Shown: one piece after another, positions 1-59,139 of the stretch | How the letters are laid out: every line of letters begins with the position of its first letter | How positions within the stretch are numbered: position 1 is the stretch's first letter | Origin: a virus | Length of the DNA: 64,000 bases | Direction: 5' to 3' (one strand) | Virus record (IMG/VR): IMGVR_UViG_3300025381_000009 | Program-made: the position numbers and the translations under genes | The notes under the pieces: model-generated | Seen by the model: the letters and a program-made list of their open reading frames with translations, nothing else | Told to the model about the DNA's origin: nothing | Databases searched by the model: none

Positions 1-65
1 GGCTTGCTCTGATCAATCAGAAAGTCAACGGCTTCTTGTGGGTCAATTTGTTTTGGCTTTTTCAT
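1..65 (-). CDS. 5' fragment of conserved phage protein (homologue of 55798..56145), truncated by window edge
   Basis: Reads MKKPKQIDPQEAVDFLIDQSK, matching MKKRKLIDPQEAVDFLIEQSK of 55798..56145; ATG overlaps the stop of 62..463. Confidence 0.8.
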   Translation of the reverse strand, partial: MKKPKQIDPQEAVDFLIDQSK

Positions 66-463
66 TCATTTCCTTCGGTTGTTAATTCTTCAGTTCTGTG
101 TTGAGTGCAGGCTTTACCGCAGTACTCACTCCAATTCTTTTGTGTTGTAACTTTCGATCCACATCTGGTTATGTAGTGAAAGTTGTTATCATAAAAACGA
201 TATACCTTACATCCATCAAATTCTTGGATTATTTGTGGTTTATGCCATTCAGCAAGTTGCTGTTCCGATGGTGCTAATAAATTAACAAGACCAATGGCAC
301 CAACAATAAATGCAACAATCACACCCAATCCAATAATCAGATGTTCATTTCTCTCGAAAAATGTTGGGGGTTTATAGGGTGGGTTTGTGTATTCATGGAA
401 TTTAACGTGAGGATAAATATTCCTTACATCAACAAATCCACTTGCATATCTTTCTTTATTCAT
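62..463 (-). CDS. Hypothetical membrane protein, copy A only
   Basis: 133 aa, one hydrophobic segment (LIIGLGVIVAFIVGAIGLVNLL), coupled to both neighbours; absent at the equivalent position in copy B. Confidence 0.7.
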   Translation of the reverse strand: MNKERYASGFVDVRNIYPHVKFHEYTNPPYKPPTFFERNEHLIIGLGVIVAFIVGAIGLVNLLAPSEQQLAEWHKPQIIQEFDGCKVYRFYDNNFHYITRCGSKVTTQKNWSEYCGKACTQHRTEELTTEGNE

Positions 464-864
464 CTAACTCTCCTGTATCTTGGACCATCAGGAAATAAAC
501 TAGGATATTGTTCGTGATCCATAGCGCCTGGTCTTCCAGTAAAAGCCTTTAGCTCTTTCCCGTCATAAGATCCTACAAACCGATCAATCTTTTCTATCCT
601 GGGCATATGGCGCTTTACAACTCCCAATTCCCTGTACTTCTCCTCACCCTTTGGCGTTACCCTCAAAAGGGAAAAGAAGTTATTTGTTTCCCCTCTGACA
701 ATATATCCATCCGATAACAATGGAGTGATGATGAATTCCTCAAGCCTGAGTATTGACTGGGTATAGTTAATCTCTTTTCTAAGCTCTTGGGCTGTCAAGC
801 TTGATCTATTGATTCGCTCAAGTGCTTGGTGAATCTTGCTACCCGCCGTGTATTTACTGATCAT
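460..864 (-). CDS. Conserved hypothetical phage protein
   Basis: Homologue at 56142..56546 (MISKYT.GSKIH.ALERI ... GRPG.MDH..YPSL). Confidence 0.8.
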   Translation of the reverse strand: MISKYTAGSKIHQALERINRSSLTAQELRKEINYTQSILRLEEFIITPLLSDGYIVRGETNNFFSLLRVTPKGEEKYRELGVVKRHMPRIEKIDRFVGSYDGKELKAFTGRPGAMDHEQYPSLFPDGPRYRRVR

Positions 865-1216
865 CCTGTTGTATCTCCACTATTATCTTTCCTGGTTTGT
901 CCCCGTGCTCCCAATTGATTTCAATCGGTCTGAAGAACTTGTCGTTAACCTGTAAAGCATCTGCCATACCATCCAATAATGATTTACTCGCCGCCAAGCA
1001 ATTATCAATATCACGATGTCTCTTATCTGGCATCACATACATTAACTTGAGCTTAATGCTACCACGATTCCAAGTCCAATTTCCTTTTGCCTGCTTTGTT
1101 AAATAAAATCCCGTCTCACGACATTCGCCCTTCAACTTGTAAAGCTTAGCCCATGCGTGACCATGCATCCTATTTGGAAATAGTTCTTTTGGTGGGAAGG
1201 GTAGTTCAACTCTCAT
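854..1216 (-). CDS. rusA: RusA-like Holliday junction resolvase
   Basis: PDKRHRDIDNCLAASKSLLDG..DAL..ND motif. Start reassigned to ATG at 1216 (MRVELPFPP) by comparison with copy B 56539..56898. Confidence 0.8.
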   Translation of the reverse strand: MRVELPFPPKELFPNRMHGHAWAKLYKLKGECRETGFYLTKQAKGNWTWNRGSIKLKLMYVMPDKRHRDIDNCLAASKSLLDGMADALQVNDKFFRPIEINWEHGDKPGKIIVEIQQDDQ

Positions 1217-2501
1217 CTTCAACCATCTGTATTCTTTTACCAATCCAAGCCATGACGGGTACAGCCATTGAATTGCCAAGCGCTTTATATCTTGGACCAT
1301 CGGGTGTGTCTTTTCCTTTTGGCTTGATGTCGGTGTAGTTATCTGAAAATCCTTGTAATCTCTCGCATTCAACTGGGGTCAGCTTACGTACTGCCATGTT
1401 ATTTAGGACTGCGGCGCTTTGGCTACACGTTAATCCATGATTGACATCAAGTGTATTCATCTCATCTGGTCTTGCATTTGAATTAAATGCCTGAACAATA
1501 CCTAGTCCACCTTGATTCTTACTTGGATCAGGCACTGTAGTATCTAAAGTTTTGGACAATTCAACCTGCCTGCATCCGCTATCTGGATTTTTAGACTTCA
1601 TGCTATTGCTTGCAAGACTATCAAAAGAATATGCAACTCCATGCTGATCTGTGCTATTAAGAGTAAATGATATGTCTTCATTTATTCCTAAACCATTTGC
1701 ATTTTGTGATGTTGAACCTGAACCTTGAAGTGAATAAGAAACCATAGGACTATTTCCACCGCCAGTTCCCATGAATGCTTGCAAAGTGTTGCTCACTCCA
1801 TCATACAAACGAACGCCATCTCTACGGCTATTCTCAAATGCAATCATGTTGAAGCCATCTGCTCTGCTCCATTCGTGACTGGTTGTTTGGAGGCAGTTAG
1901 CAAGGCTTGGTACAAATTCTCTGGTAGTTTCTTGCCTCTTGCTTCTGCTCGGCGGAGTATCCCTGCGCAAGCTTTCTGGCTCAAAAAGAACCTTTGCGGC
2001 AGATTCCCAGTCTCCAAGACATCCGACAACAAACACACGTCTGCGTCGCTGGGCCACTCCGAAGTACTGAGCGTCAAGGACTCTGTAGGCCCACCCATAC
2101 CCGAGTTCTGCCACCGCCCCGAGGAAGGAACCAAAGTCCCGTCCTCCCGCCGAACTGAGGACACCTGGCACGTTTTCCCAGACAAACCATTTGGGCTTAA
2201 ATTTATCAAGAAGTCCACAATAGGTGAGCATGAGGTTTCCTCTTGGGTCTTCAAGTCCTTTTCTAAGTCCTGCGACACTGAATGATTGACATGGGGTTCC
2301 TCCGACCAAAAGCTCAATTGTTCCAAGATTCCACTCCTTATATTTAGTCATGTCACCAAAATTAGTGACGTTTGGATAATGATGTTTTAAAACTTCTGAT
2401 GGGAATTTCTCAATCTCACTAAATCCTGCCGCTTCCCAACCTAACGAATGCCAAGCAACTGTCGCCGCTTCGATACCACTACATACACTTAAATATTTCA
2501 A
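1206..2501 (-). CDS. dcm: DNA (cytosine-5)-methyltransferase
   Basis: Motif I (SVCSGIEA), IV (GGTPCQSFS), VI (ENVPG), VIII (QRRRRVF), IX (RKLTPVECERLQGF), X (YKALGNSMAVPV); TTG start with AGGAG RBS. Confidence 0.95.
   Translation of the reverse strand: MKYLSVCSGIEAATVAWHSLGWEAAGFSEIEKFPSEVLKHHYPNVTNFGDMTKYKEWNLGTIELLVGGTPCQSFSVAGLRKGLEDPRGNLMLTYCGLLDKFKPKWFVWENVPGVLSSAGGRDFGSFLGAVAELGYGWAYRVLDAQYFGVAQRRRRVFVVGCLGDWESAAKVLFEPESLRRDTPPSRSKRQETTREFVPSLANCLQTTSHEWSRADGFNMIAFENSRRDGVRLYDGVSNTLQAFMGTGGGNSPMVSYSLQGSGSTSQNANGLGINEDISFTLNSTDQHGVAYSFDSLASNSMKSKNPDSGCRQVELSKTLDTTVPDPSKNQGGLGIVQAFNSNARPDEMNTLDVNHGLTCSQSAAVLNNMAVRKLTPVECERLQGFSDNYTDIKPKGKDTPDGPRYKALGNSMAVPVMAWIGKRIQMVEDES
1844..2326 (-). 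CDS. Out-of-frame ORF nested in the methyltransferase gene; resembles the beta polypeptide of heterodimeric M.EcoHK31I-type MTases
   Basis: 160-aa same-strand alternative frame with LSDVLETGNLPQRFFLSQKACAGILRRAEARGKKLP; resemblance recalled, not searched. Confidence 0.5.
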   Translation of the reverse strand: MEQLSFWSEEPHVNHSVSQDLEKDLKTQEETSCSPIVDFLINLSPNGLSGKTCQVSSVRREDGTLVPSSGRWQNSGMGGPTESLTLSTSEWPSDADVCLLSDVLETGNLPQRFFLSQKACAGILRRAEARGKKLPENLYQALLTASKQPVTNGAEQMAST

Positions 2502-2517
2502 TTACAACTCCTATGGA

Positions 2518-2540
2518 TTAACTTTGAGTTAATGATACCA
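2518..2540 (-). promoter_or_regulatory. Extended -10 promoter (TGGTATCAT) followed by TTAACT-N3-AGTTAA palindrome upstream of the MTase
   Basis: TGnTATCAT at 2540-2532 (minus); palindrome ttaact-ttg-agttaa at 2518-2532; RBS directly downstream. Confidence 0.6.
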
Positions 2541-2542
2541 CA

Positions 2543-3496
2543 TCAAAATGCTGTCCTAAATCTCATGGGGTTCATCCCTTGCTCTTCAACATATTGCTGT
2601 GAGTCTTTGTGGTACCAGAGGTTGAATGATGGCTCATCTTCCCCGTTCCTTTGCTTACGGCAGAGAATCATTGCATCTGGATCTGATTGTGCGGCGCTCA
2701 GTGGTCCTTTATTCTTTAAGTCGTCCTCTTTTCTTTTGTTCCTCCAAACGAGCATGATGTTGTCAGGTTGGTCGGTGATCGAGCCTGAACCCTTGTTGTC
2801 GTGCTTATCGGGCAACTCGTACTCATCCTTGGGCTTACGCAGGTGGTGGACAACATGGATGTGACCTGCATAATCCCTTGCCAGTCCACAGCATCTGTCG
2901 ATAAAGTATTTCTGCCCGTTGTAGTCATCCTCACCCATCACGCACTTCATCAGCGAGTCCACAAATATGTGCTGAATCTTTAGCTCCTCAAAGCAATACT
3001 TGATCATTCCAAGTACAGTATCGGGCTTTACCGAGCCTTGTTGGTCATAGAACCACATACCCTGATCCAACCATACCCCAAACTCGTTATAAAGCTGTTT
3101 GAGGGCTTCTAATCCCTCGGGGTTCATAAACTCCTTGGACGTTGGATTCATGCCAATGTACTGCCTAGCCATGCGCTTCATGGTCGTCACAGGCTTCATC
3201 TCAAAGCTTGCGATACAGACCCTTTGCTGTTGTTGGATCAGCCCAAGTGCCACCTGGGAGGTCACCATAGACTTCCCGTGCCCGTTCTGCCCTGCCCAAA
3301 TCGTTACCTCTCCCTCCCTGAAGTGAAAGAATGGTGCTGTCTTCGCCCAAGGTAGGGTGACTTTCTTACCGTCTTTGTGCTCCTCAAGGTCTAGGATCAA
3401 GTCTTGGATGTAGGATTTGGCGGGATGTACCCTCGCCTGCATCTCGGTGGCTTGCAGATAAGCCTCAAAATCTACGTCATCAGGCAGTGTGTTCAT
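2543..3496 (-). CDS. DnaB/T7 gp4-like SF4 replicative helicase (no primase domain)
   Basis: Walker A WAGQNGHGKS, FVDSLMK, VHHLRK, KGSGSITD, KQRNG; start set at MNTLPDD by comparison with copy B. Confidence 0.9.
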   Translation of the reverse strand: MNTLPDDVDFEAYLQATEMQARVHPAKSYIQDLILDLEEHKDGKKVTLPWAKTAPFFHFREGEVTIWAGQNGHGKSMVTSQVALGLIQQQQRVCIASFEMKPVTTMKRMARQYIGMNPTSKEFMNPEGLEALKQLYNEFGVWLDQGMWFYDQQGSVKPDTVLGMIKYCFEELKIQHIFVDSLMKCVMGEDDYNGQKYFIDRCCGLARDYAGHIHVVHHLRKPKDEYELPDKHDNKGSGSITDQPDNIMLVWRNKRKEDDLKNKGPLSAAQSDPDAMILCRKQRNGEDEPSFNLWYHKDSQQYVEEQGMNPMRFRTAF

Positions 3497-3845
3497 TTGC
3501 TTGCTCCAATTCATCAAATCCAGTTCTTGAGTCGTATATACGGTTGTAGTAGTGCTTTTCTCTGATTTCGCCCTGCCAAGTTACGCTGATGAAGTCTGCT
3601 TTTGCCTTCAGCAAGGCTTCAAACAGGGCTACAGCACGTTCTTTTGTACTGGCATAGGCAAAGACATACATCCCCATCAAAAAGCGCAGGTCGATGCGAT
3701 CTAGGGCTTTTTCGTCATAGACCGTGATCTCGGGGGAGTGATCCTCCTCAACCCAGTTTGGCAGGTAGGGTTGGTCGTAAATAAAGGCCAGAGTTGGGTG
3801 GATGTTGCGCTTACGCAGGTCGATTAGTGCTTGGTGTCCTTTCAT
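3480..3845 (-). CDS. Conserved hypothetical protein between initiator and helicase
   Basis: Close homologue at 57832..58197; translationally coupled. Confidence 0.8.
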   Translation of the reverse strand: MKGHQALIDLRKRNIHPTLAFIYDQPYLPNWVEEDHSPEITVYDEKALDRIDLRFLMGMYVFAYASTKERAVALFEALLKAKADFISVTWQGEIREKHYYNRIYDSRTGFDELEQANEHTA

Positions 3846-4519
3846 ACAGCCCCCGCAAAAATGTTTTTCTTTTCTGGCACAGATACCTCATCTTCCCAAC
3901 GTCTATTGTTCAGCCAAGTGGATGGGTGAGGAATAAATTTACCGTTTTCTCTTGTCCATTGGTCTGATCTGCACTGTGCTTCTAATCCAACAAGCATGGT
4001 ATTTAGAAGTTGTTGATCAGGATTTATTTTCTTAAAAGATGCTTGCGCTTTAGCCTTATCTATTTTTTTAGGATAAGTCTTCCAGAACATATCAAAAAAG
4101 GTATTACTCTGGTTACTGGTTACTGGTTCTTGGTTATTGGTTAGTGGTTTATGGTTAGGTGGAGCTTCGTGCACGGTTCGTGTACGCTTCGTTCCTTTTT
4201 CTCTACGCTTCGCCTCTCTCTCAATAGCGATCCGTTTATTTATTACGGAGTTGTTATGGTAATTTTCAAGCTCTTCACGTATTCTGTTCTGAACGTACTT
4301 ATCGCCCTCAAGTAAGAAAAACTTCTTAAGAACAAACTCAACAGCCTCTATTTCCTGTTGATTAGAAGCCCACGTCCATTCAATAGCTTGATCTAGCGTG
4401 GGGAACTGTTCACGGTCATAACACGCATCGAGAAGAAGCGTGTACGCTCCGTGTTGTAGCATGGTCAAACGACCTGCTTTCTTGGCATAATCGCCAATAT
4501 TTTTTTTGTAGTAATGCAT
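3842..4519 (-). CDS. Replication initiator, DUF1376/YdaU-like N-terminus
   Basis: MHYYKKNIGDY N-terminus, internal iterons, C-terminal FWKTYPKK...PHPSTWLNNRRWEDE; position between cro and helicase. Confidence 0.8.
   Translation of the reverse strand: MHYYKKNIGDYAKKAGRLTMLQHGAYTLLLDACYDREQFPTLDQAIEWTWASNQQEIEAVEFVLKKFFLLEGDKYVQNRIREELENYHNNSVINKRIAIEREAKRREKGTKRTRTVHEAPPNHKPLTNNQEPVTSNQSNTFFDMFWKTYPKKIDKAKAQASFKKINPDQQLLNTMLVGLEAQCRSDQWTRENGKFIPHPSTWLNNRRWEDEVSVPEKKNIFAGAV
4110..4194. repeat. Probable replication origin iterons (copy A)
   Basis: Seven tandem 7-mers TGGTT(A/C/T)N at 4110-4158, then 11-bp-period TTCGTG(C/T)ACG repeats at 4166-4194, inside the initiator gene as in lambdoid ori. 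Confidence 0.65.
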
Positions 4520-4554
4520 ATATTTTCAGACCCGTAATGTAGACCCTGTGAAAG

Positions 4555-4621
4555 GAAACCTCGGCAGGAGGGGTCTGTTCTCTTTTCGGTATGCTCATGA
4601 CTTCATACCTAGCCGTGTTTC
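4555..4621 (-). ncRNA. C4/P4-CI-like structured antisense RNA (copy A)
   Basis: Minus strand folds as outer stem GAAAC/GUUUC + CGGCUAG/CUGCCG, hairpin GGUAUG/CAUACC, GAAAA linker, hairpin GAG-AACAGACCC-CUC; nearly identical in copy B apart from the last loop. Confidence 0.7.
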
Positions 4622-4627
4622 GCTAAA

Positions 4628-4831
4628 CTATACCATAAAAATATCAGGTCTAAGAACCTCTCTTTTCACCAGTCCTTGGGTAGCCTCTTCTATCTTGATG
4701 GATAGGGCAGGAGAGGGCTTACGATGCCCGTGGATGAGCAAAGATAACCAGGTGGCAGTTACCCCCAGGTATTCAGCCATCTCCACTATAGCGCCTTTTG
4801 GCTCGTCTTTAAAGTATTCATTCAATGTCAT
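4628..4831 (-). CDS. Cro/YdaS-like HTH regulator
   Basis: 67 aa, MAEYLGVTATWLSLLIHGHRKPSPALSIKIEEATQGLV...LRPDIF; homologue 58939..59139. Confidence 0.85.
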   Translation of the reverse strand: MTLNEYFKDEPKGAIVEMAEYLGVTATWLSLLIHGHRKPSPALSIKIEEATQGLVKREVLRPDIFMV

Positions 4832-5058
4832 TATTGTCCCCTATTAGCAATAATTATTTTCATAGTTTGCTCTTGTGCTTCATACAAAGGAGCCGCACAA
4901 TCTTTGCATAGTTGAGCATTTATCCCCAACCAATTAAACGAAAATTGTCTATGTGGTCTTGGAAATTCCATTCCAGGATAGTCACTGCATTCATAAACTT
5001 CTGTATCAAGCGTTTTCTTGCATCCATCACAAATATGCTCATAGGTTAGCTTAATCAT
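4831..5058 (-). CDS. Small CxxC...CxxC protein (cassette), paralogue of 52979..53209
   Basis: HICDGC ... LCKDCA; ends ANRGQ in the shared junction. Confidence 0.75.
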   Translation of the reverse strand: MIKLTYEHICDGCKKTLDTEVYECSDYPGMEFPRPHRQFSFNWLGINAQLCKDCAAPLYEAQEQTMKIIIANRGQ

Positions 5059-5215
5059 TCTTGCCCTCCATGGGTCTATTAAACATTGCCAGTCCTAATT
5101 GCCCAAGCATAACTGCCTTTAACTCTTCTCTTTCTTCTTCTGGATAATCAAGAGCAACCTCTTCTATGATTTTTAAAATGTCATTAGCCATTTGCAATAT
5201 TGGTATTGCACTCAT
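5051..5215 (-). CDS. 54-aa cassette ORF missing from the supplied track
   Basis: MSAIPILQMANDILKIIEEVALDYPEEEREELKAVMLGQLGLAMFNRPMEGKND; ATGA-type coupling at both ends. Confidence 0.7.
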   Translation of the reverse strand: MSAIPILQMANDILKIIEEVALDYPEEEREELKAVMLGQLGLAMFNRPMEGKND

Positions 5216-5433
5216 TCTTGTCCCCTTGCTCTAATTGCTTCAGCGCACAAATCTGCGGCATTTGAATATCTACCGTTGTCATACGCATCACACACCTTTG
5301 CACACTCCTCACGTTCTTTTTTTGCTATTAGTTTGGCAAAATAAAAAAACTGAGGTAAATTAATTGGGTCTTCCTTTTTAGATATTGGAAAACCAGAATC
5401 AATAGCCATCTCAATTATTTCTTCTTCAGTCAT
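5212..5433 (-). CDS. EREECAK...IRARGQE family mini-protein (cassette)
   Basis: Shares motifs with 53394..53585, 53582..53806 and 53996..54196. Confidence 0.75.
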   Translation of the reverse strand: MTEEEIIEMAIDSGFPISKKEDPINLPQFFYFAKLIAKKEREECAKVCDAYDNGRYSNAADLCAEAIRARGQE

Positions 5434-5680
5434 TCTTCTTCATCCTATTCTTAATTGCTTGAGACAACTCCTCTTGGCTCCACTCCATCGCCAAGTCAGC
5501 GCAAGCCTCCCTCTCAATAGATATAGCCTTCCTAGTCGTTTCAATAGCTATAGCCATGATCTCAGCCTTGGCTACGGTCAAAGCATCATCAAACTCCGTC
5601 TGGGTGAATAACTTCATAGCCCCAGAGCTACCGAGCAGTTGACGGGCGAGTGGGCTGAGTTCTGGTTCTTTGCGTTGCAT
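5426..5680 (-). CDS. Hypothetical protein (EREAC motif)
   Basis: 84 aa, first ORF after the leftward promoter; ISIEREACADLA. Confidence 0.7.
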   Translation of the reverse strand: MQRKEPELSPLARQLLGSSGAMKLFTQTEFDDALTVAKAEIMAIAIETTRKAISIEREACADLAMEWSQEELSQAIKNRMKKND

Positions 5681-5704
5681 AGTGTTCCTTTGTGTTCTGC
5701 TGTG

Positions 5705-5769
5705 ATTATACGTTAACTTTGTGTTAAATATACCACAGTTAACTTATAGTTAAAAAACTATGCTACATT
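5705..5769. promoter_or_regulatory. Divergent promoter region (copy A) with two TTAACT-N3-(A/T)GTTAA palindromes
   Basis: Leftward TATAAT at 5710-5705; palindromes at 5713-5727 and 5739-5753; rightward extended -10 TGCTACATT at 5761-5769 (TGGTACATT in copy B). Confidence 0.65.
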
Positions 5770-5804
5770 ATCTGTACCGCATAGCGGGTTTTTAAAGGAA
5801 TCAA

Positions 5805-6032
5805 ATGAAAGTTTATACAACAACCAAATCGGGCATTCAGATAGGATGCTATTACGAACCTCCTCTACGTAACAATATGTCAGAGGATGATGAACTGATC
5901 CAACGAGCACTGCTTGGCATCAGAGAACCCCAAGACTTTTGGACAATGCTTGACTGGTTTACCTACTCGGTACTGGTATCTGTACTTTTGTCTGTTGTTA
6001 TTTCTTACTTTGCTGTAACAGGTGACGCATGA
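5805..6032 (+). CDS. Small membrane-anchored early protein
   Basis: TTKSGIQIG...DDELIQRALLG plus C-terminal TM; homologue 59264..59467; AAGGA RBS. Confidence 0.7.
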   Translation: MKVYTTTKSGIQIGCYYEPPLRNNMSEDDELIQRALLGIREPQDFWTMLDWFTYSVLVSVLLSVVISYFAVTGDA

Positions 6033-6340
6033 ATATATTCAAACAAATTATGACTCAATTTAATACCTCGGGTGGGGTTCGTTTAACAGATCCAGAAACT
6101 TCTGTAGATGCGGCGCTATCCGTAGATGCCACCAAGATGGAACAAATCGTTTTAGATACGATTAAAAGCTTCCCAAATGGTTGCATCAGTGAAGAAGTAG
6201 AAAATGCTCTGCCTCACATTAGAGCCTCTTCTATAACCCCACGCTATCGTCCTCTTATGAAGAAGGGATTAATAGTAGATACAGGAGAGAAACGACCAGG
6301 TTTCTCAGGACGTAATCAAAGAGTAATGAGGGCAGTATGA
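6029..6340 (+). CDS. Winged-HTH-like hypothetical protein
   Basis: RLTDPETS..AA ... SSITPRY..L ... SGRNQRV; similar to 54604..54918. Confidence 0.6.
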   Translation: MNIFKQIMTQFNTSGGVRLTDPETSVDAALSVDATKMEQIVLDTIKSFPNGCISEEVENALPHIRASSITPRYRPLMKKGLIVDTGEKRPGFSGRNQRVMRAV

Positions 6341-6627
6341 AACCACATAAACACGCAGAACTAATCAAGGCATGGGCAGATGGTGCTCAGATTCAATGTT
6401 TTGATTGCAATCATGGTTGGAAAGATTTAGGAGAGTATTTTGTTTGGGCTAATGATTACCAGTACAGAATAAAACCAGAGCCTAAGCCTGATTATGTGCA
6501 GTATGTATTTTTTCATTTCAATTGGGGTGTAAATATATTAAAAGAATATCCATTCAGTGAGGCAAATCTCAAGCTTACATTTGATGGAGAATCATGCAAA
6601 CTTAAATCAGCAGAGGTGCTTAAATGA
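6337..6627 (+). CDS. Hypothetical phage protein (KPHKHAELIKAWADG family)
   Basis: Coupled ORF; YRIKPEPKPD motif common in phage accessory proteins. Confidence 0.7.
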   Translation: MKPHKHAELIKAWADGAQIQCFDCNHGWKDLGEYFVWANDYQYRIKPEPKPDYVQYVFFHFNWGVNILKEYPFSEANLKLTFDGESCKLKSAEVLK

Positions 6628-6812
6628 AAGCATTTCCAAAACTAAATGAAAAACAACCCTCTTACCAAACTGGAATGGACTTGAGGGATTGGTTTGCAGG
6701 TTTGGCTATGGAAGGAATTATTTATGAGGGAGTTACTCCAGAACAAACAGCTAAGGCCGCATACCGAATGGCAGATGCAATGATGAAAGAAAGGGAGAAT
6801 AAAGATGAATGA
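6624..6812 (+). CDS. Hypothetical phage protein (LRDWFAGLAM family)
   Basis: Paralogue of 53206..53397 (MTLRDYFAAKAM). Confidence 0.75.
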   Translation: MKAFPKLNEKQPSYQTGMDLRDWFAGLAMEGIIYEGVTPEQTAKAAYRMADAMMKERENKDE

Positions 6813-6975
6813 CAGAATGATGGAAGAGTGGGAAGATTTTAAAAGAAGCAAACAAGAACTGGAGGAATATGACCTATACGTAATGATCGAAGAGTACAAA
6901 AAATTGACACCTAAACAGAAAATTATTTACAACAAATTAATGGAAGAAACAAATGAGCCTATACGCAAGCAGTAA
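6805..6975 (+). CDS. 56-aa acidic protein missing from the track
   Basis: MNDRMMEEWEDFKRSKQELEEYDLYVMIEEYKKLTPKQKIIYNKL; conserved at 59478..59630. Confidence 0.75.
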   Translation: MNDRMMEEWEDFKRSKQELEEYDLYVMIEEYKKLTPKQKIIYNKLMEETNEPIRKQ

Positions 6976-7576
6976 CAATCAAGCATCAACATTCAAGAAC
7001 GTACCATCAGGACTACACCTAGCCCGTTGCTACCGAATTATTGACCTCGGTACCCAAAAGTCCGAGTTCGAGGGTAAAGCCAACTTCTCACGCAAGGTAA
7101 TGATCTGTTGGGAAATCCATGGGGATGAGAGCGTCACAACCGACAAAGGTGAGCCAATGGCTATCTTTAAGACGTATACCCTATCCCTGAACGATAAAGC
7201 CGCTCTACGGGCTGATTTACAGTCTTGGAGGGGTAGAGCCTTCACCCAAGATGAACTCAACCGCTTTGACCTCAAAAACGTCCTTGGCGCATGGTGCATG
7301 ATTAACGTCATCCAAAAGCCAGTTGGCGATAAAGTCTACTCAAACGTAGCATCTTTAGCCCCCGTCCCACAGGTAGTCAAGGGATCTGGCTTACCAGAAG
7401 GGCATAACGATCTGGTCATCTTCAATATTGCTGAGCCAGATATGAAGATATTTGATACTTTTGGTAAGAACGTAAAGTTCAAGATTGAGAGTAGCCCAGA
7501 GTGGAAGGCCAGAACAAACACGGGCTTTGAGGACATGAATAACGATTTGGAGGACGATGATGGCCCACCATTCTGA
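6953..7576 (+). CDS. Putative single-stranded DNA-binding protein
   Basis: GLHLARCYRIIDLGTQ OB-like family, acidic tail ending DDDGPPF; upstream of nuclease; homologue 59627..60262. Confidence 0.7.
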   Translation: MSLYASSNNQASTFKNVPSGLHLARCYRIIDLGTQKSEFEGKANFSRKVMICWEIHGDESVTTDKGEPMAIFKTYTLSLNDKAALRADLQSWRGRAFTQDELNRFDLKNVLGAWCMINVIQKPVGDKVYSNVASLAPVPQVVKGSGLPEGHNDLVIFNIAEPDMKIFDTFGKNVKFKIESSPEWKARTNTGFEDMNNDLEDDDGPPF

Positions 7577-7772
7577 TAAAGACGAATTCCAAGAATGGTT
7601 TGATGACGAGAACTTACCCCCTGAACTGGAAGACTTTTGTTGGAATATCTGGCAAATAGCCTTCAGGGCAGGTGGTAAGCAACCTTGGTACTCACTTAGC
7701 CGTCAGCAATGGGAAGTAATTAATAAAAAATTTAAGGAAAACAATGACAACAGTAATCGCAAGAGCAAGTGA
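7557..7772 (+). CDS. Hypothetical protein, copy A only
   Basis: 71-aa Trp-rich ORF overlapping both neighbours; absent in copy B. Confidence 0.55.
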   Translation: MMAHHSDKDEFQEWFDDENLPPELEDFCWNIWQIAFRAGGKQPWYSLSRQQWEVINKKFKENNDNSNRKSK

Positions 7773-8511
7773 GTCCCAACACTGGTACACCCAGGAAGGA
7801 ATGCCACAATACACAGTCACCGCTAAGAACGGTACACAGCGCAATACCACGTTGCGTGATGCAAGGACTATGAAGCTAGTCCCCTCGGTCAGTACGATCA
7901 TTGGTTGCGCCGCCAAGCCTGGACTGGAGGCGTGGAAACTCAACCAGATGATGCTTGCCTGTATGACCCTACCCAGGGCTTCAGATGAGTCGGAGGAATC
8001 CTACATCGAGCGGGTTAAGCATGACTCCAAGGAGCACGCCAGAAAAGCGGCAGAGCGGGGTACAGCCATTCACGGAGCCTTAGAAAGTTTCTATGAGGGC
8101 ATTATGCTTGCGGAGTTCCTAGACTACCAAATGGGTGTATCTAAGGCCGTAGAAGCTCATTTTGGGGCTTGTGAGTGGTTAACTGAGCGATCCTTTGCCT
8201 TTGAGGGATACGGTGGCAAGTGCGATATGTACACCAAGCAGGGAGATGGAATCGTTATTGACTTTAAAACCAAGGAGTTTGGTCCAAATGACAAGGTAGA
8301 AGGCTATGACGAACATCGAATGCAACTCTCAGCCTACCGCAATGGATTAGAAGTGCCTTATGCTAGGTGCGCTAACGTATTTGTGTCTGTTTCTAACCCT
8401 GGCCTAGTCAGAGTTGTGGAGTGGACGCAAGAGGAACTTGAGCAGGGTTGGCAGATGTTTGACGCTCTCAAGACATATTGGCAAATTAAAAATAACCATA
8501 AGGTGATGTAA
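7744..8511 (+). CDS. PD-(D/E)XK exonuclease-like recombination protein
   Basis: PSVSTI, RGTAIH, GGKCD...IDFKT, QLSAY; homologue 60289..61050. Confidence 0.8.
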   Translation: MTTVIARASESQHWYTQEGMPQYTVTAKNGTQRNTTLRDARTMKLVPSVSTIIGCAAKPGLEAWKLNQMMLACMTLPRASDESEESYIERVKHDSKEHARKAAERGTAIHGALESFYEGIMLAEFLDYQMGVSKAVEAHFGACEWLTERSFAFEGYGGKCDMYTKQGDGIVIDFKTKEFGPNDKVEGYDEHRMQLSAYRNGLEVPYARCANVFVSVSNPGLVRVVEWTQEELEQGWQMFDALKTYWQIKNNHKVM

Positions 8512-8790
8512 ATGAAAAAACTAATCTGGATACCAGTATTAATTGCAGGCTGTTCTAGCCAACCCCAACTACCCGCAAACATACCCTCTAATACAGCCAA
8601 CTTCCCCGCTGTATCAGTTATGTATGATTCAAAAATCCAACAAATGTCACGCAACGAAGTGATCATGGCAACCCACGAATGTGAGTCACAAGGTCTTCGT
8701 CCCGTACCAATCATCACCAAACGCTTAATCAGCGGAATGATGAGCGAGATGATTGTTGATGTGGTTTGTATGCCTAAAATTAAATATTAA
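8512..8790 (+). CDS. Predicted lipoprotein
   Basis: MKKLIWIPVLIAGC signal with lipobox-like IAGC; homologue 61054..61344 (LCGC). Confidence 0.6.
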   Translation: MKKLIWIPVLIAGCSSQPQLPANIPSNTANFPAVSVMYDSKIQQMSRNEVIMATHECESQGLRPVPIITKRLISGMMSEMIVDVVCMPKIKY

Positions 8791-8799
8791 GGAGAACGT

Positions 8800-9141
8800 A
8801 TGAAATTTAAAATAATGCTTGAAGCACAAGATATTAGAAAAATCATTGAATATTTAGAATCTTTTCCCGTAAAAGATGTTAAAGATTTACTTGACACTAT
8901 TGGTGACCAAGCCAATTCTCAACTTCACATGGCTACTCAGTTCAAAGAAGATGTTGAAAAATTCAAAGAGGAGTGGGAGTATCGTCCTGCTGAAAGACAC
9001 TTCGGACCATCACTAATGGAAATCATAAGAAAGCAAGCAGAAGCTCGTCAAGAACAAGCCCCCAAGCGTAAATATGTACGCAAAACCGCTGTTAAACGTG
9101 GCAGAACATCCAAATTATCACAACTGAAAGGTAAAAAATGA
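8800..9141 (+). CDS. Hypothetical protein with basic C-terminus
   Basis: AGGAG RBS; C-terminus KRGRTSKLSQLKGKK shared with 61354..61668. Confidence 0.7.
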   Translation: MKFKIMLEAQDIRKIIEYLESFPVKDVKDLLDTIGDQANSQLHMATQFKEDVEKFKEEWEYRPAERHFGPSLMEIIRKQAEARQEQAPKRKYVRKTAVKRGRTSKLSQLKGKK

Positions 9142-9377
9142 GCAATCCATATTTAACTAAAGAAGAGATCAAGAGCGCATATTTGTCATGCGAATTTGAT
9201 AGCAAAGATGGTCTTTACGCAGGTGAGGACGTTGAGATCTACGAGTTGGCTGATGCCATCATTAAGAGCGCCGCATTTGCCATTGCTCGTACTGAGCGTG
9301 AGTTCTGCATCGAGTTCGTAGAGTCTCTCAACCCAGAAGTAGCCAAAGCTTTACGTGAGAAAAGGGGCAACCTTTGA
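9138..9377 (+). CDS. Hypothetical protein
   Basis: Homologue 61665..61910 (NPY.TKE.I ... TER..CI.FV.SLN.EVA). Confidence 0.75.
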   Translation: MSNPYLTKEEIKSAYLSCEFDSKDGLYAGEDVEIYELADAIIKSAAFAIARTEREFCIEFVESLNPEVAKALREKRGNL

Positions 9378-9619
9378 TCGTCTCAAATGATCGCTATACG
9401 TGCGAGGACTTTGTTGAGGAACTCTTTGGAGATGGTTGGGATGAGAAGGACTTACCTTCTATGCTCACCATCCTCAAGGAATGGGAGATTAACTCTAAGC
9501 GCTACTGCGTCATCCGAGACTACGCCATAGAGCTAAAGCTTGGATTTGAGGTCAGACACCGTGAAGACTTCAAGTTCATTGACGATATGGTGGACGCTAA
9601 GATGCATTCTGAGGAATAA
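9374..9619 (+). CDS. Hypothetical protein, copy A only
   Basis: 81 aa, TTG start coupled to upstream stop. Confidence 0.6.
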   Translation: MIVSNDRYTCEDFVEELFGDGWDEKDLPSMLTILKEWEINSKRYCVIRDYAIELKLGFEVRHREDFKFIDDMVDAKMHSEE

Positions 9620-9735
9620 AAAACCCCCCTAGACTTTTGATCCAGGGGGGAAAACTACTTGAGTCTTGGCAACTGCAAGTACATAGGAGGAGACGTCCTA
9701 TGTTTTTTTAAGGGGGACATAACCCCCTTTTTTTT
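9618..9735. terminator. Convergent terminators enclosing a conserved multi-hairpin element
   Basis: Hairpins CCCCCT..AGGGGG (U-tract on minus), ACTTG..CAAGT, ACATAGGA..TCCTATGT, AGGGGG..CCCCCT (U-tract on plus); conserved at 61911-62026. Confidence 0.7.
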
Positions 9736-11449
9736 ATGGTTGGCTACCTTGATTGGCTCCAATCCTAGATAGCGCACCAGTAACTACGGGTTCAAGCTTC
9801 CTGACCACATTTGGACGTTCTGTAGCAATCTTTGTCATAGCCTTCATTGCAGGCTCGTTGTACATCAATGCAGATCCAATAAGTGGTGCAAACCCTGTTT
9901 TAAAGTGTCCTGCGCCCTCTGCCAGTCCTTTGAGGGATAGCATCGCCGCAAGCCTATCCGCTGTACCGCTATTTGGCACAGAGGTTCCTAAAACATCCGA
10001 AGCCGCCTGGCTCTCAGGCATCATCATGCCCTGACCCTTGGCTACGTTTTTCTTGCCTGCAACCTGTTGGACAGCAGATTTGAACTGATCGGGCGTAAAT
10101 ACACCTTCATCAGCGCCCCTACGGGAAGCCGCAACCTCCAGTGGTTGGAACTCTCTAAACGCCTTGTGAGCTTGTTCTAGCTGTTTGGCTACCAAAGGGT
10201 TCTGGTCTTTTAATTCCTGCCGTAAACCCGATAAAACAGTTCTGTAGGCGTTTCCTAAGCCGTCCATACCCTGACTGTAGAAGTCATTGGATTTATTGCT
10301 CAAATACTTCTCAACCTCTCTATATTGATCCCCGCTCATAACCTTTTCATTCTGAATGTGGCCTGTGACATTCGTGGCTATATCGTTAGCCATCATCTTT
10401 TGTTGACCAGGTACGAGCTTAGCCATAGCTGAATCAGCAAGATTGCTCAAATGCTCGGAGGTTCTTTGACCTAATACGGGATGAATTGCATCCGAGAATG
10501 AGGCGTTTTGCAAGAATCCATCATAAGCATCACTGATCTTTTTACCAATAGTCTCAATCATCTTGTTGCCAACTGGAGCATCTTTGGTAAGCTTTAAGCC
10601 CAAATTAGATAGAACTTTATTGCCCACAGCCTTGTTAAAGTCCTCAAAAGAATTCTGAATTCCTTTACCAATCACAGATCCTGCAATCGGTAGACTGGTG
10701 AGCTTTTTCTCAAAGTTTTGTATTCCCTCTCCAATCATTGGGAAATTACTAGCCAATTGACCAGGCGTGAACTTGGTCATACCCATGTCTTTGAGTTGCT
10801 GAAGTCGAGCAGATACTTGAGGATTGGTCAGCATTTGACCTACCTTACCACCTGCAACGCCTAGGGCTGTAGACTCACCCAAATCAGCGATCTTCTCGCC
10901 AAGGATATCCATGTAGCTCTTGTTGGCTGTATCTGTAACTTGACCACCTAAGCCTTGAATAGCTGAAGGAATAGCGTATTTGAGTGCAGGTGACTTAGCA
11001 ATTGCATTGGCAACCTGTGGAATCTTTGTGCCTAAAGTCTCGGGAATAGCCAAAGATGGTGCTATCTCACCCACCGTTTCCGCCGCAGATGCAGGATTAA
11101 CGCCGAGAGTTGTTGGCACACTGCTCTTGGCATAGTTTGCGTTCTTCTCAAGCGCTTCCATTGGGCTTCGTATGTTTGCCCACTCAAGTGCCCCCGCAAG
11201 CGGTTTTAAGACGCCTTGCAGGCCTGATAAGCCCGATAGGATACCTGTGCTAACCCCAGAGGTCGGATAGAACTTATGGCCTGATTCTTCCTTGAACCGT
11301 GGGAAGTCATCCATCTTGACCTTTGGAGTTTCAGGCTCTTCGGTCTTGGTTTGCATAGATTTTAAATAAGCATCAGGATCAAACCCATCCTTTGGTGCGC
11401 TTTTGGGTTGGATACTGGCAAGATATGCATCAGGATTAAATTCAGCCAT
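9734..11449 (-). CDS. Putative DNA ejection (internal virion) protein
   Basis: 571 aa, last late gene, PNSGTADRL motif, helical A/G-rich; homologue 62025..63740. Confidence 0.65.
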   Translation of the reverse strand: MAEFNPDAYLASIQPKSAPKDGFDPDAYLKSMQTKTEEPETPKVKMDDFPRFKEESGHKFYPTSGVSTGILSGLSGLQGVLKPLAGALEWANIRSPMEALEKNANYAKSSVPTTLGVNPASAAETVGEIAPSLAIPETLGTKIPQVANAIAKSPALKYAIPSAIQGLGGQVTDTANKSYMDILGEKIADLGESTALGVAGGKVGQMLTNPQVSARLQQLKDMGMTKFTPGQLASNFPMIGEGIQNFEKKLTSLPIAGSVIGKGIQNSFEDFNKAVGNKVLSNLGLKLTKDAPVGNKMIETIGKKISDAYDGFLQNASFSDAIHPVLGQRTSEHLSNLADSAMAKLVPGQQKMMANDIATNVTGHIQNEKVMSGDQYREVEKYLSNKSNDFYSQGMDGLGNAYRTVLSGLRQELKDQNPLVAKQLEQAHKAFREFQPLEVAASRRGADEGVFTPDQFKSAVQQVAGKKNVAKGQGMMMPESQAASDVLGTSVPNSGTADRLAAMLSLKGLAEGAGHFKTGFAPLIGSALMYNEPAMKAMTKIATERPNVVRKLEPVVTGALSRIGANQGSQP

Positions 11450-52982: not shown

Positions 52983-53209
52983 GCTTGCCCCCTGTTAGCA
53001 ATAATTATTTCCATAGTTTTTCTTTGTGCTTCGTACAAAGGCTTTGCACAATCTTTGCATAGTTGGGCATTTAATCCTTGCCAATGAAATGAAAACATTC
53101 TGTGTGTTTTTGGAAATTCCGTACTTGGGTAATCACTACATTCATAAACTTCTGTATCAAGCGTTTTATTACACCCGTCACAAATGTGTTCGTAGGTTAG
53201 CTTAATCAT
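52979..53209 (-). CDS. Small CxxC...CxxC cassette protein, paralogue of 4831..5058
   Basis: Near-identical sequence by eye. Confidence 0.75.
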   Translation of the reverse strand: MIKLTYEHICDGCNKTLDTEVYECSDYPSTEFPKTHRMFSFHWQGLNAQLCKDCAKPLYEAQRKTMEIIIANRGQA

Positions 53210-56546: not shown

Positions 56547-56898
56547 CTTGGTTTATCTCCACAATTAATTTGCCTGGTTTTTTTCCTTCAGTCCAATTAA
56601 TTTCAATTGGCCGAAAGAATTTATCATTAACTTGTAACGCATCAGCAAAACCATCAAGCAAAGACTTACTCGCACTCAAGCAATTGTCTATGTCTCTGTG
56701 TCTTTTATCTGGCATTACAAATGTTAACTTTAACTTAATGTTACCACCATTCCAAGTCCAATTTCTTTTTTCTTGTTTGGTTAAATAAAATCCTGTCTCA
56801 CGACAATCACCTTTTAGCTTATACAGTTTTGCCCATGCGTGACCATGCATACGATTAGGAAATAATTCTTTTGGTGGGAATGGTAGTTCTACTTTCAA
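56539..56898 (-). CDS. rusA: RusA-like resolvase (copy B)
   Basis: PDKRHRDIDNCL; TTG start overlapping the helicase stop. Confidence 0.8.
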   Translation of the reverse strand: MKVELPFPPKELFPNRMHGHAWAKLYKLKGDCRETGFYLTKQEKRNWTWNGGNIKLKLTFVMPDKRHRDIDNCLSASKSLLDGFADALQVNDKFFRPIEINWTEGKKPGKLIVEINQDD

Positions 56899-57848
56899 AA
56901 TGCTGTCCTAAATCTCATTGGTTCTTTACCCTGCTCCTCAACGTACTGCTGAGAGTCTTTGTGGTACCAGAGGTTAAACGTCGGCTCATCCTCCCCGTTC
57001 CTTTGCTTACGACATAGGATCATGGCGTCAGGGTCAGACTGTGCGGCGCTGAGTATCCCCTTAGACTTCAGGTCGTCCTCTTTCTTTTTATTGCGCCACA
57101 CGAGCATAATGTTGTCGGGTTGGTCAGTAATAGCGCCAGATCCTTTGTTGTCGTGCTTGTCAGGCAACTCGTACTCATCCTTGGGCTTTCGCAGGTGGTG
57201 GACGACGTGGATATGACCTGCGTAGTCTCTAGCCATTCCACAGCACCTGTCGATAAAGTACTTCTGACCGTTGTAGTCATCCTCCCCCATCACGCACTTC
57301 ATGAGCGAATCCACAAAGACGTGCTGAATCTTCAACTCCTCAAAGCAGTACTTGATCATGCCCAGAACCGTGTCAGGTTTCACCGAGCCTTGTTGGTCAT
57401 AGAACCACATGCCTTGGTCTAACCACACGCCAAACTCGTTGTAAAGCTGTTTGAGCGCCTCCAAACCTTCAGGGTTCATGAACTCCTTGGACGTTGGATT
57501 CATGCCTATAAACTGCCTAGCCATGCGCTTCATGGTCGTCACAGGCTTCATCTCAAAACTTGCGATACAGACCTTCTGCTGTTGTTGGATCAGGCTAAGC
57601 GCCACCTGGGAGGTCACCATTGACTTGCCGTGCCCGTTCTGCCCCGCCCAAATCGTTACCTCGCCATCCCTGAAGTGAAAGAACGGCTCGGTCTTTGCCC
57701 AGGGTAGGGTGACTTTCTTTCCGTCTTTGTGTTCCTCAAGATCGGCTATCAGATCTTGGATGTAGGACTTGGCAGGGTGAATCTTTGCCTGCATCTCGGT
57801 GGCTTGGAGGTAAGCCTCAAAATCTACGTCATCAGGAATTAAGTTCAT
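56895..57848 (-). CDS. DnaB-like helicase (copy B)
   Basis: Near-identical to 2543..3496; start MNLIPDD. Confidence 0.9.
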   Translation of the reverse strand: MNLIPDDVDFEAYLQATEMQAKIHPAKSYIQDLIADLEEHKDGKKVTLPWAKTEPFFHFRDGEVTIWAGQNGHGKSMVTSQVALSLIQQQQKVCIASFEMKPVTTMKRMARQFIGMNPTSKEFMNPEGLEALKQLYNEFGVWLDQGMWFYDQQGSVKPDTVLGMIKYCFEELKIQHVFVDSLMKCVMGEDDYNGQKYFIDRCCGMARDYAGHIHVVHHLRKPKDEYELPDKHDNKGSGAITDQPDNIMLVWRNKKKEDDLKSKGILSAAQSDPDAMILCRKQRNGEDEPTFNLWYHKDSQQYVEEQGKEPMRFRTAF

Positions 57849-58197
57849 TTGCGACCTCCGTCTCGTCGTAGCCAGTCCTGGCGTCATACATTCGTGACCA
57901 GTAATGCTTTTGTCGTATCTCACCTTGCCATGTAACGGTCATGAAGTCGCATTGAGCCTTCAGCAAGGCTTCAAACAGGGCTACAGCGCGTTCTTTTGTC
58001 TTGGGGTAGGCAAAGACATACATCCCCTTCAAAAACCGCAGGTCGAGGCGATCTATGGCTTTCTCGTCATAGATTGTGATCTCAGGTGAGTGCTCCTCCT
58101 CAACCCAGTTGGGTAGGTAAGGCTCGTCATAGATAAACGCTAGGGATGGATGGATGCCGCGCTTACGCATGTCGATCAGATGTTGGTGTCCTTTCAT
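57832..58197 (-). CDS. Conserved hypothetical protein (copy B of 3480..3845)
   Basis: Start MKGHQHL overlaps the initiator stop. Confidence 0.8.
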   Translation of the reverse strand: MKGHQHLIDMRKRGIHPSLAFIYDEPYLPNWVEEEHSPEITIYDEKAIDRLDLRFLKGMYVFAYPKTKERAVALFEALLKAQCDFMTVTWQGEIRQKHYWSRMYDARTGYDETEVANELNS

Positions 58198-58829
58198 ATG
58201 CCCTCCGAGAAGTTTGGCTTTCTGCTGACAGTTGTAGCCTGAGTAGCCTTTTGATTCCTGACCCATGTTCGCCAAGTAGCAAACCAGTCAAGCTTTACCC
58301 CCTTTTGCCCTGGCTGAGCAATCCAGTAATCGCGGAACCCTTCAAAGAGTTGATCAGGATCTAAGTCAGATCTTGTCTTTTCGCAGAAGTCTAGGTATTC
58401 GGGAGATAGCGTAGCGTCAGGAGATAGACGAGTTCCACGAGTTGTCTTTACTGTGTCTTGTGTCTTGGGTAATGGGTCTTGGGTAGCATTGCTTTCGGAT
58501 TGCGTTTGCAATGCGTTCGCATTCCATCTAGCCATAGCACTTTTCTTGGCTTTTTCACTCTTAGAATTGACCTTTTGGATCTCCTGATTGACCCTCTCAT
58601 TAGACCATCCCCCTTCTATGCGAACGAAGTATTCTTGCAAGACCCTCGCAATGCAATCGGTATGCGAACGCATACAAATTAGCCTAGCAATCTCATCAAT
58701 ATTTTCAGGAAGTGATCGTTCGTGGAGGTAACACCAATCAAGTAACCTGCGATAAGCAAGGTCTTCAAATAGATCAAGGTGTTTGGTATGACTTTGATAG
58801 TCACCAATATTAAATAAATAATAGTGCAT
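58194..58829 (-). CDS. Replication initiator, DUF1376/YdaU N-terminus (copy B)
   Basis: MHYYLFNIGDY, DLAYRRLLD.CY; C-terminus RGTRL..FRDYW..DWFATWRTWVRN differs from copy A. Confidence 0.8.
   Translation of the reverse strand: MHYYLFNIGDYQSHTKHLDLFEDLAYRRLLDWCYLHERSLPENIDEIARLICMRSHTDCIARVLQEYFVRIEGGWSNERVNQEIQKVNSKSEKAKKSAMARWNANALQTQSESNATQDPLPKTQDTVKTTRGTRLSPDATLSPEYLDFCEKTRSDLDPDQLFEGFRDYWIAQPGQKGVKLDWFATWRTWVRNQKATQATTVSRKPNFSEGI
58452..58517. repeat. Probable origin iterons (copy B)
   Basis: Five 7-mers TG(T/G)GT(C/A)N at 58452-58486, then TTGCG/ATGCG repeats. Confidence 0.55.
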
Positions 58830-58862
58830 GGTTTTTCCGCTTTTAAAATTCCGCCTGTAAAG

Positions 58863-58928
58863 GAAACCTCGGCAGGAGGGCGGAGACTCTTTTCGGTATG
58901 CTCATGACTTCATACCTAGCCGTGTTTC
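58863..58928 (-). ncRNA. C4/P4-CI-like structured antisense RNA (copy B)
   Basis: Same scaffold as 4555-4621; last loop UCUCCGCC. Confidence 0.7.
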
Positions 58929-58938
58929 GCAAATCATA

Positions 58939-59139
58939 TCACGAAAATATATCAGATCTCAGTTCTTTTTTTGTGACTAACCCTTGGGTCGCCTCTTCTA
59001 TCTTGATAGACAGCGTAGGAGAGGGCTTACGGTGCCCGTGGATGAGCAAAGACAACCAAGTGGATGTTACCCCCAAATAAGTGGCCATCTCAACTATAGC
59101 CCCTTTAGGCTCCTCTTTAAAATAATCATTTAATGTCAT
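58939..59139 (-). CDS. Cro/YdaS-like HTH regulator (copy B)
   Basis: Near-identical to 4628..4831; AAGGAG RBS. Confidence 0.85.
   Translation of the reverse strand: MTLNDYFKEEPKGAIVEMATYLGVTSTWLSLLIHGHRKPSPTLSIKIEEATQGLVTKKELRSDIFS

Follow-up and report, generated by a model that had tools for sequence, protein, structure and literature searches.

A divergent int-alpA-type RNA whose variable loop matches two sites before the replication initiator gene in freshwater phages

Background

The closest described systems are small RNAs of temperate phages and the leaders of certain plasmid replication genes. In the heteroimmune phages P1 and P7, the loop/target pairs of the C4 RNA differ; the CI RNA of phage P4, which controls replication genes, has one loop sequence (seqB) with two pairing sites. 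The 5′ ends of the C4 and CI RNAs are made by RNase P. In the repZ/repA genes of IncI-alpha and IncB plasmids (Rfam PK-repZ), a leader hairpin loop pairs with a short sequence beside the ribosome site of the initiator, forming a pseudoknot that activates translation, and the antisense RNA that determines incompatibility is transcribed from the opposite strand. Finally, the Rfam family int-alpA (RF02996) was named for its neighbouring int and alpA genes. It has been published as a candidate structured RNA without an assigned function (Weinberg et al. 2017, PMC5737381), and a literature search found no functional study of it. Here, we analyze a structured element ahead of phage replication initiator genes that was first pointed out in an earlier note on a single viral contig, and we compare it with these systems.

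Results and discussion

Two copies of one scaffold in a phage contig

The window, which is the whole stretch of 64,000 nucleotides that was analyzed (IMG/VR record IMGVR_UViG_3300025381_000009), is a freshwater metagenome contig made up of two diverged phage units, head to tail as assembled. The units are 70-86% identical in alignable blocks (pairwise alignment of window 1-9700 with 56000-64000), and a 571-aa gene is present twice, at 9734-11449 and 62025-63740. Both units have the same order on the minus strand, namely a Cro/YdaS-like HTH gene, the RNA, a DUF1376 initiator gene, a small ORF, and the gene for a DnaB-type helicase (Table 1). According to PHROGs, the DUF1376 protein is a primosomal or replication-initiation protein. 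The cro-like genes upstream of the two RNAs are only ~83% identical, and the initiator genes diverge fast.

Table 1. Features of the two copies in the window (positions are those of the window)
Feature	Position	Strand	Description	Basis
Extended -10 promoter, copy A	4627..4635	-	TGgTATAGT; overlaps TAG stop of cro-like gene	Sequence; predicted
Extended -10 promoter, copy B	58933..58941	-	TGaTATGAT; overlaps TGA stop of cro-like gene	Sequence and scan
RNA, copy A	4551..4621	-		R1 83.4 bits; RF02996 30.9 bits, E = 1.4e-4; P2 and P3 covary
RNA, copy B	58859..58928	-	Scaffold as copy A	R1 81.1 bits; RF02996 28.3 bits, E = 6.5e-4
P3 loop, copy A	4571..4579	-	AACAGACCC; putative specificity determinant	Sequence, alignment, duplex energies
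Site 1, copy A	4541..4546	-	GGGUCU; 8 nt past the GUUUC end of P1 (4555)	Sequence, energies
Site 2, copy A	4527..4533	-	GGGUCUG; Shine-Dalgarno position, 7 nt before ATG (4519)	Sequence, energies
P3 loop, copy B	58879..58886	-	UCUCCGCC	Sequence, alignment, energies
Site 1, copy B	58850..58855	-	GGCGGA	Sequence, energies
Site 2, copy B	58836..58840	-	GCGGA; 6 nt before ATG (58829)	Sequence, energies
Cro/YdaS-like HTH gene A	4628..4831	-	3′ end holds predicted RNA promoter	Pfam YdaS_toxin, HTH_3; PHROG 35 'transcriptional repressor'
Cro/YdaS-like HTH gene B	58939..59139	-		Pfam
Initiator A / primosomal protein A	3842..4519	-	DUF1376, 225 aa; putative regulated gene	PF07120 E = 1.7e-21; PHROG 9327 'primosomal protein' E = 6e-51
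Replication initiator B	58194..58829	-	DUF1376, 211 aa	PF07120 E = 2.2e-19
DnaB-type helicase A	2543..3517	-	Downstream of initiator, one operon	Pfam DnaB_C
DnaB-type helicase B	56895..57923	-	Counterpart of helicase A	Pfam DnaB_C

On the minus strand from 4621 to 4551, copy A reads GAAACACGGCUAGG-P2-CCGAAAAGAG, loop AACAGACCC, then CUCCUGCCGAGGUUUCCUUU. The closing stem P1 pairs GAAAC-A-CGGC (4621-4612) with GCCG-AG-GUUUC (4565-4555), P2 occupies 4609-4588, the junction J2/3 is GAAAA, and the P3 hairpin (4582-4568; 58889-58876 in copy B) consists of GAG (4582-4580), the loop, and CUC (4570-4568). The RNA is followed by CACA, GGGUCU, 7 nt, GGGUCUG, AAAAUAU, and the initiator ATG. The earlier note had described the two copies as near-identical except for one loop, and pairwise alignment bears this out: the scaffold sequences flanking the loop are 100% identical, and the P3 loop differs together with the two leader sites. 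On re-reading, all of the coordinates and sequences that it gave were correct. The complementarity of the loop to two sites in each copy, which it had also claimed, is confirmed by the sequence and by predicted duplex energies, with cognate combinations of loop and site at -9.7 to -12.7 kcal/mol and cross combinations at -1.4 to -4.5 kcal/mol. By predicted duplex energy, copies A and B are orthogonal.

Conservation of the fold among relatives

To collect relatives, we searched with a pattern of the invariant scaffold words, which matched first 5 and then at least 120 IMG/VR contigs. Our sample comprises 97 distinct RNAs among the matches listed, from IMG/VR freshwater phages and Comamonadaceae prophages (alignment A2), and from this alignment we built the covariance model R1. 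R1 found no third copy in the window besides A and B, and it found nothing new in 151 genomes related to one carrier, where only ~33 candidates per genome were scored. Scanning genome contigs with a 17-base pattern gave mostly chance matches in unrelated phyla; the real matches were a handful, in Xenophilus and Alicycliphilus (both Comamonadaceae) and in three short MAG contigs. The carriers include Xenophilus sp. Marseille-Q4582 and a prophage at ~2.88 Mb of Alicycliphilus denitrificans Ylb10. A BLASTn search with the region found no match among 50,697 cultured-phage records.

The three-way junction that the earlier note had drawn is backed by covariation in these homologues at P2 and P3. Three P2 pairs show 22-54 double compensatory changes among the 97 distinct sequences, and in P3 the pair 44:66 of alignment A2 is AU in 49 sequences, CG in 28, and GC in 18. 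P1 is conserved without variation, as CGGC/GCCG and GAAAC/GUUUC around a small internal loop, so covariation neither backs nor tests this stem. RNAalifold on A2 recovers upper P1, P2, and P3. Separately, we considered and rejected a leader peptide: the start AUG of a 60-aa ORF (4416-4598) lies in the P2 loop and is missing from other P2 types, and the ORF is therefore not conserved.

Comparison with C4/CI, isrK, and plasmid leaders

The Rfam models that the earlier note had suggested as candidates, C4, c4-2, and isrK, did not match anything in the window, either at the gathering level or at E values up to 10. The c4-a1b1 model, which belongs to clan CL00128 together with C4 and probably c4-2, was tried as well and had no match at E values up to 10 around either copy. 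As positive controls, RF01695 (C4, clan CL00128) found P1 with 68.8 bits and P4 with 74.9 bits, and isrK (RF01394) found P4 with 60.8 bits. Conversely, R1 gave no match at P1 c4 and P4 CI.

The likeness to these phage RNAs is one of arrangement. As in P1 and P4, the RNA is encoded upstream of its own targets and on the same strand; one target follows the RNA closely, and the other is at the ribosome site of the first gene. In the P1 annotation, c4 spans 48343-48419, a2 begins 4 nt downstream of it, and 11 nt separate b2 from the icd ATG. As in C4 and CI, a three-way junction holds the antisense sequence in its 3′ hairpin loop. The scaffold, however, is unrelated to C4, with no sequence or model similarity. 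C4 has two antisense segments (a′ and b′), whereas the window type has a single loop for both sites, and where C4 and P4 have upstream copies of the target (a1b1 in P1, seqA in P4), both sites of the window type are downstream, with no cognate signal in the 60 nt upstream of the RNA. The 5′ end, an RNase P product in C4/CI, is predicted to be placed by a promoter in the window type, and the gene under control is icd/ant in the C4 systems but would be the replication initiator itself here. The difference from IncI-alpha and IncB is that no opposite-strand RNA gene is evident in the window and that the scaffold is unrelated.

A divergent branch of int-alpA

A scan of the whole window against Rfam gave no match at the gathering level, and in local searches neither copy reached the RF02996 cut-off of 35.8 bits (Table 1). 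At the E-value level, int-alpA was the only real Rfam match, with alignments that span model positions 1-71 of 71. When 16 close relatives were scored against RF02996, three passed (37.2, 37.0, and 36.7 bits) and 13 fell at 24.7-35.7 bits. The window type and int-alpA share the order P1-P2-P3 and the junction words CUAG (after P1), CGAAAAG (between P2 and P3), and CCUG (before the 3′ strand of P1). A Xenophilus locus passes both models (RF02996 40.5 bits, R1 52.2 bits), and of 41 true int-alpA loci, R1 recovers about half. Based on this reciprocal detection and the shared Xenophilus locus, we classify the window element as a divergent, AT-rich, phage-borne branch of int-alpA.

True int-alpA, which is present in 32 of the 151 genomes sampled around Xenophilus, has the same relation between loop and leader. 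In members from Comamonadaceae-type genomes, the P3 loop is complementary to two downstream sites. Site 1 is 'AgGG', a conserved stretch of the Rfam model at its 3′ end, and the second site is Shine-Dalgarno-like and lies just before the start codon. The sites of int-alpA proper resemble Shine-Dalgarno sequences (GAAGGGG, GAGGGA) and its loops resemble anti-Shine-Dalgarno sequences. For the GC-rich int-alpA loci, a crude permutation on the longest match of the loop only gave z = 4.0, a fit that none of the 5000 permutations equalled, and duplex energies of the whole P3 gave a noisy z = -1.6. In some bacterial genomes, co-resident int-alpA copies share one loop, so strict orthogonality is not universal.

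The two branches also differ in several respects. P1 has 5 + 4 bp with an internal loop in the window type and is a GC-rich helix of 8 bp in int-alpA. For the window type, a separate promoter is predicted at P1, whereas the GC-rich int-alpA members inspected have none. Directly after P1, the window type is U-rich, while 12 of 29 int-alpA members (L254-L283) have ACC, which resembles the tRNA discriminator-CC and the C4 consensus 'aCC'; by this analogy, ACC in the GC-rich members may be an RNase P processing signal. Int-alpA proper has a much narrower range of loops than the window type. The gene downstream is a replication initiator in the window type, whereas the genes that follow the GC-rich int-alpA copies checked encode proteins without a match at the Pfam cut-off, so that no informative family came up. 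The integrase/alpA context was not found in the window or in any of the 80 parsed relatives, where the RNA is preceded by an early gene (often cro-like) and followed by the initiator. In GC-rich int-alpA (L254-L294, e.g., L267, L272, L288, and L262), the second target is often in the loop of a small GC hairpin directly before the start codon, for example UGCAU-GAGGG-AUGCA, and contact with such a target would be loop to loop (kissing).

The loop covaries with two downstream sites

Among 80 parsed leaders, there are 38 distinct loops. To assess whether loops fit their own sites, we took one representative per loop and permuted the loop assignments 5000 times. At site 1, the mean cognate energy was -8.72 kcal/mol compared with -5.34 kcal/mol for permuted assignments (z = -11.9), and at site 2 it was -8.31 compared with -5.16 kcal/mol (z = -10.8); none of the 5000 permutations was as good at either site. 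Two control regions were without cognate signal. One was the 60 nt upstream of the RNA, where cognate loops gave -4.86 and permuted loops -4.56 ± 0.25, and the other was the first 60 nt of the initiator ORF. A strand test based on the excess of G.U over A.C mismatches returned counts dominated by C-rich loops beside A-rich flanks.

Some of the loop changes are single and compensated. The locus L084 has loop AAUAGACCC with site 2 GGGUCUA, where copy A has AACAGACCC with GGGUCUG, and another relative (L065) has loop UUUAGACCC with site 2 GGGUCUAAAA. The earlier note had named the loss of complementarity in further homologues as the outcome that would count against it. The opposite was seen, with complementarity kept in 38 loop variants, and the co-evolution of loop and target that it had envisaged now extends to 38 loops that each fit their own two sites.

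The geometry of the leader is compact. Pairing at site 1 tends to involve the 3′ part of the loop, and pairing at site 2 its 5′ and central part; the two pairings overlap on the loop and are therefore mutually exclusive on one RNA. Site 2 frequently has one extra C that would bulge from the duplex (AAGG-C-GAG vs AAGGGAG). In relatives, the gap from P1 to site 1 has a median of 4 nt (range 2-9; 8 nt in copy A), the gap between the sites has a median of 5 nt, and the gap from site 2 to the ATG has a median of 3.5 nt and is 0-7 nt in most relatives. The whole leader is 23-45 nt long.

Compared with its flanking scaffold, which is invariant, the loop varies far more, and it occurs in a mosaic. Up to eight loops are found on one P2 sequence, one loop is found on up to five P2 stems, and a single initiator N-terminus is found with up to six loops. 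Despite this reassortment of P2 and initiator, the loop and its sites match throughout. As the loop reassorts with P2 and the initiator but never without its sites, the loop and sites move as a unit. Judging from these sequences, relatedness alone does not account for the covariation of loop and sites. The covariation proves that pairing matters, not where the pairing happens. The hypervariability of the loop would reflect diversifying selection on specificity, which fits a regulator that acts in trans and hardly fits a purely structural pseudoknot.

Predicted ends of the RNA

For copy B, a promoter scan lists CTGAGA-18-TATGAT on the minus strand, with a TG upstream. Among 90 distinct relatives, 78 have TAnnnT ending 4-6 nt before GAAAC; 35 of these 78 have the TG of an extended -10 element, and 41 have a -35 element that matches at four or more of six positions. 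This promoter-like signal is kept behind at least five unrelated upstream genes, which encode a Cro-like HTH protein, a 144-aa protein ending in ITNNQFI, and at least three others. Transcription is predicted to start at the first base of P1, which in copy A is the G/A of GAAAC (4621-4620). In relatives, TTT at positions -3 to -1 before GAAAC is 87-93% conserved, above the -10 hexamer itself; the window copies have AGC (4624-4622) and TGC (58931-58929) at these positions, not TTT.

Directly 3′ of P1 is the U-rich tract GUUUCUUUU. The 9 nt after P1 average 70% U, and several columns of the tract are at least 90% conserved; the U-rich tail of copy A is CUUU (4554-4551), and the Rfam int-alpA consensus also has U7 after P1. 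The tract after P1 departs from a standard terminator in that the closing stem encloses a branched structure, and a simple terminator scan made no call there. A search for RNA sequencing runs with this sequence found none. A promoter and a U-tract that bound P1 suggest that a discrete RNA of ~70 nt is made.

Proposed mechanism and alternatives

We consider it moderately probable that the element is an antisense RNA like C4 and CI, which acts in trans and probably also in cis, blocks translation of the initiator, and sets specificity groups. Under this proposal, a gene for a small RNA of ~70 nt would double as the 5′ leader of the replication operon, which encodes the initiator and, after it, the DnaB-type helicase. 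Transcription would start at the first base of P1, from a sigma-70 promoter that lies in the last codons of the upstream gene and in most cases has an extended -10 element. In the folded RNA, P1 would close the junction, P2 would be structural, and the short P3 would present an 8-10 nt C-rich loop. Many transcripts would probably end at the U-rich tract and free the small RNA, and read-through transcripts, together with transcripts from the early promoter that pass through the cro-like gene, would carry the leader with its two sites. Pairing of the loop at site 2, over the ribosome-binding region, would block binding of the 30S subunit and lead to less initiator and less replication; site 1 could offer the RNA another place to dock, or it could act as a decoy that occupies the loop of its own transcript. 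With specificity confined to the loop and its sites, no cross-regulation would be expected between phages whose loops differ, as those of A and B do. Such a lack of cross-regulation would parallel the heteroimmunity set by the C4 RNAs of P1 and P7 and by P4 CI. Repression is assumed as the direction of effect; the comparable pseudoknot of IncI/IncB activates initiator translation. What the earlier note had proposed, an RNA switch in cis or in trans that pairs with two sites at the initiator start, is supported in kind by the complementarity in 38 loops.

Both targets are on the same transcript, with site 1 near P1, and a mechanism confined to cis would therefore also explain the covariation. 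In such a switch, the P3 loop would serve as an anti-Shine-Dalgarno sequence that toggles between site 1 (decoy or pseudoknot, on) and site 2 (masked, off), or it would form a pseudoknot that activates translation of a gene with a poor Shine-Dalgarno sequence, like that of IncI-alpha/IncB repZ/repA, and no free RNA would be involved. We regard this as possible but unlikely. It agrees with two sites on one transcript, 23-45 nt from P1, whose pairings overlap and exclude each other, and with nearest-neighbour folding, in which a nested alternative that pairs the loop with the leader is within ~2.5 kcal/mol of the three-way junction and is the predicted optimum in 20 of 78 leaders, both window copies among them. 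The Shine-Dalgarno-like sites and anti-Shine-Dalgarno-like loops of int-alpA proper, and the loop that is sometimes common to co-resident copies, are likewise what a switch in cis could have. However, intramolecular pairing leaves the variability of the loop against an invariant scaffold without a reason, and the same is true of up to eight specificities on the same scaffold and of orthogonal pairs in two linked phage units. The promoter exactly at P1 and the U-tract exactly after it (ACC in int-alpA proper) suggest the release of a discrete RNA, and the median linker of 4 nt between P1 and site 1 (8 nt in copy A) would be tight for a pseudoknot across a helix of 9-10 bp. Trans action is favoured by the contrast between hypervariable specificity and a fixed scaffold, by the presence of an orthogonal pair in a single contig, and by signals that appear to delimit a discrete RNA.

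Alternatively, the three short repeats, two of them direct and the third, that of the 'loop', inverted, could be DNA sites, operators or iterons bound by a phage protein such as the repressor, Cro, or the initiator; their covariation would then stem from protein-DNA specificity and not from RNA pairing. The region between a cro-like gene and an initiator gene is a frequent place for operators and origins, and 5-9 bp is a plausible size for a half-site, but we think this explanation very improbable. The repeats sit within a scaffold whose P2 and P3 covary as RNA, and many different repeat sequences are found with one and the same initiator N-terminus and with one and the same upstream gene. Moreover, the bulged C in site 2 is tolerated by an RNA duplex and not easily by a protein half-site, and the arrangement is kept from AT-rich phages to the GC-rich chromosomal copies of int-alpA.

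If the antisense reading is taken further, int-alpA-type RNAs may form a second, independently built class of phage RNA immunity beside C4/CI, in which the choice of the replication module to be silenced would depend on a single hypervariable loop carried by a fixed scaffold; we offer this only tentatively. The regulatory logic would be of the known C4/CI kind, by analogy, on a different scaffold that was previously without a function. If this were true, co-occurring freshwater phages would carry dozens of mutually orthogonal 'replication-immunity' or incompatibility types, two of them side by side in the window, and would hold a natural library of programmable RNA-RNA locks. An orphan Rfam motif, common in Burkholderiales-type genomes (32/151 sampled), would gain a concrete candidate function, and the system would extend RNA-based phage immunity and replication control from the enterobacterial P1, P7, P4, and N15 to abundant freshwater phages. 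The 38 or more natural loop/target pairs on one scaffold would be material for the study of RNA-RNA specificity evolution and for orthogonal translational regulators. Such a system could also explain the coexistence or exclusion of closely related temperate phages at the level of replication.

Genomic surroundings

The two units of the window may be prophages that truly lie in tandem, or the assembly may have walked from one strain variant into another; the Logan unitigs available for the window are short and end at the scaffold. Specifically, unitigs from four lake samples (window 4552-4623) stop exactly at the edges of the RNA scaffold, at 4552 and 4609, and one unitig runs from scaffold A into upstream sequence of the copy-B type. 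These breaks indicate that the scaffold is a repeat common to co-occurring phage variants and a likely recombination point.

The units differ in gene content. A C5 cytosine methylase gene (431 aa, PF00145, E = 2e-54; 1206-2501, minus strand) lies downstream of the helicase in unit A and is missing at the matching place in unit B. Four small ORFs between the early promoter and cro are likewise found in unit A only; one of them (4828-5066) is 82% identical to an ORF (52979-53217) in a small-gene array of unit B. On the plus strand at 4462-4507, opposite the first codons of the initiator, the scan found a promoter-like TGGTCA-18-CATAAT with TG, and the same stretch holds a hairpin plus a T-run (TTGGCATAATCGCCAA TATTTTTTTT). 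The inverted repeat is built from the conserved IGDY codons of DUF1376 genes, and these plus-strand signals could reflect an antisense transcript or a coding coincidence.

In every type examined, with the exception of two loci, the first gene after the leader encodes a replication initiator. The majority are DUF1376 proteins, and the other types, several of them unrelated, are phrog_26426 'replication protein', phrog_5810 and phrog_678 'replication initiation', DnaD-like/O-like, HTH_36, and DUF927 prim-pol proteins. At the two exceptional loci, an N6/N4 DNA methylase gene (L088:5955-6884) and a GIY-YIG nuclease-like gene (L019:3334-3672) are first behind the leader, in the place of the initiator, and there the sites of the RNA would guard an inserted gene.
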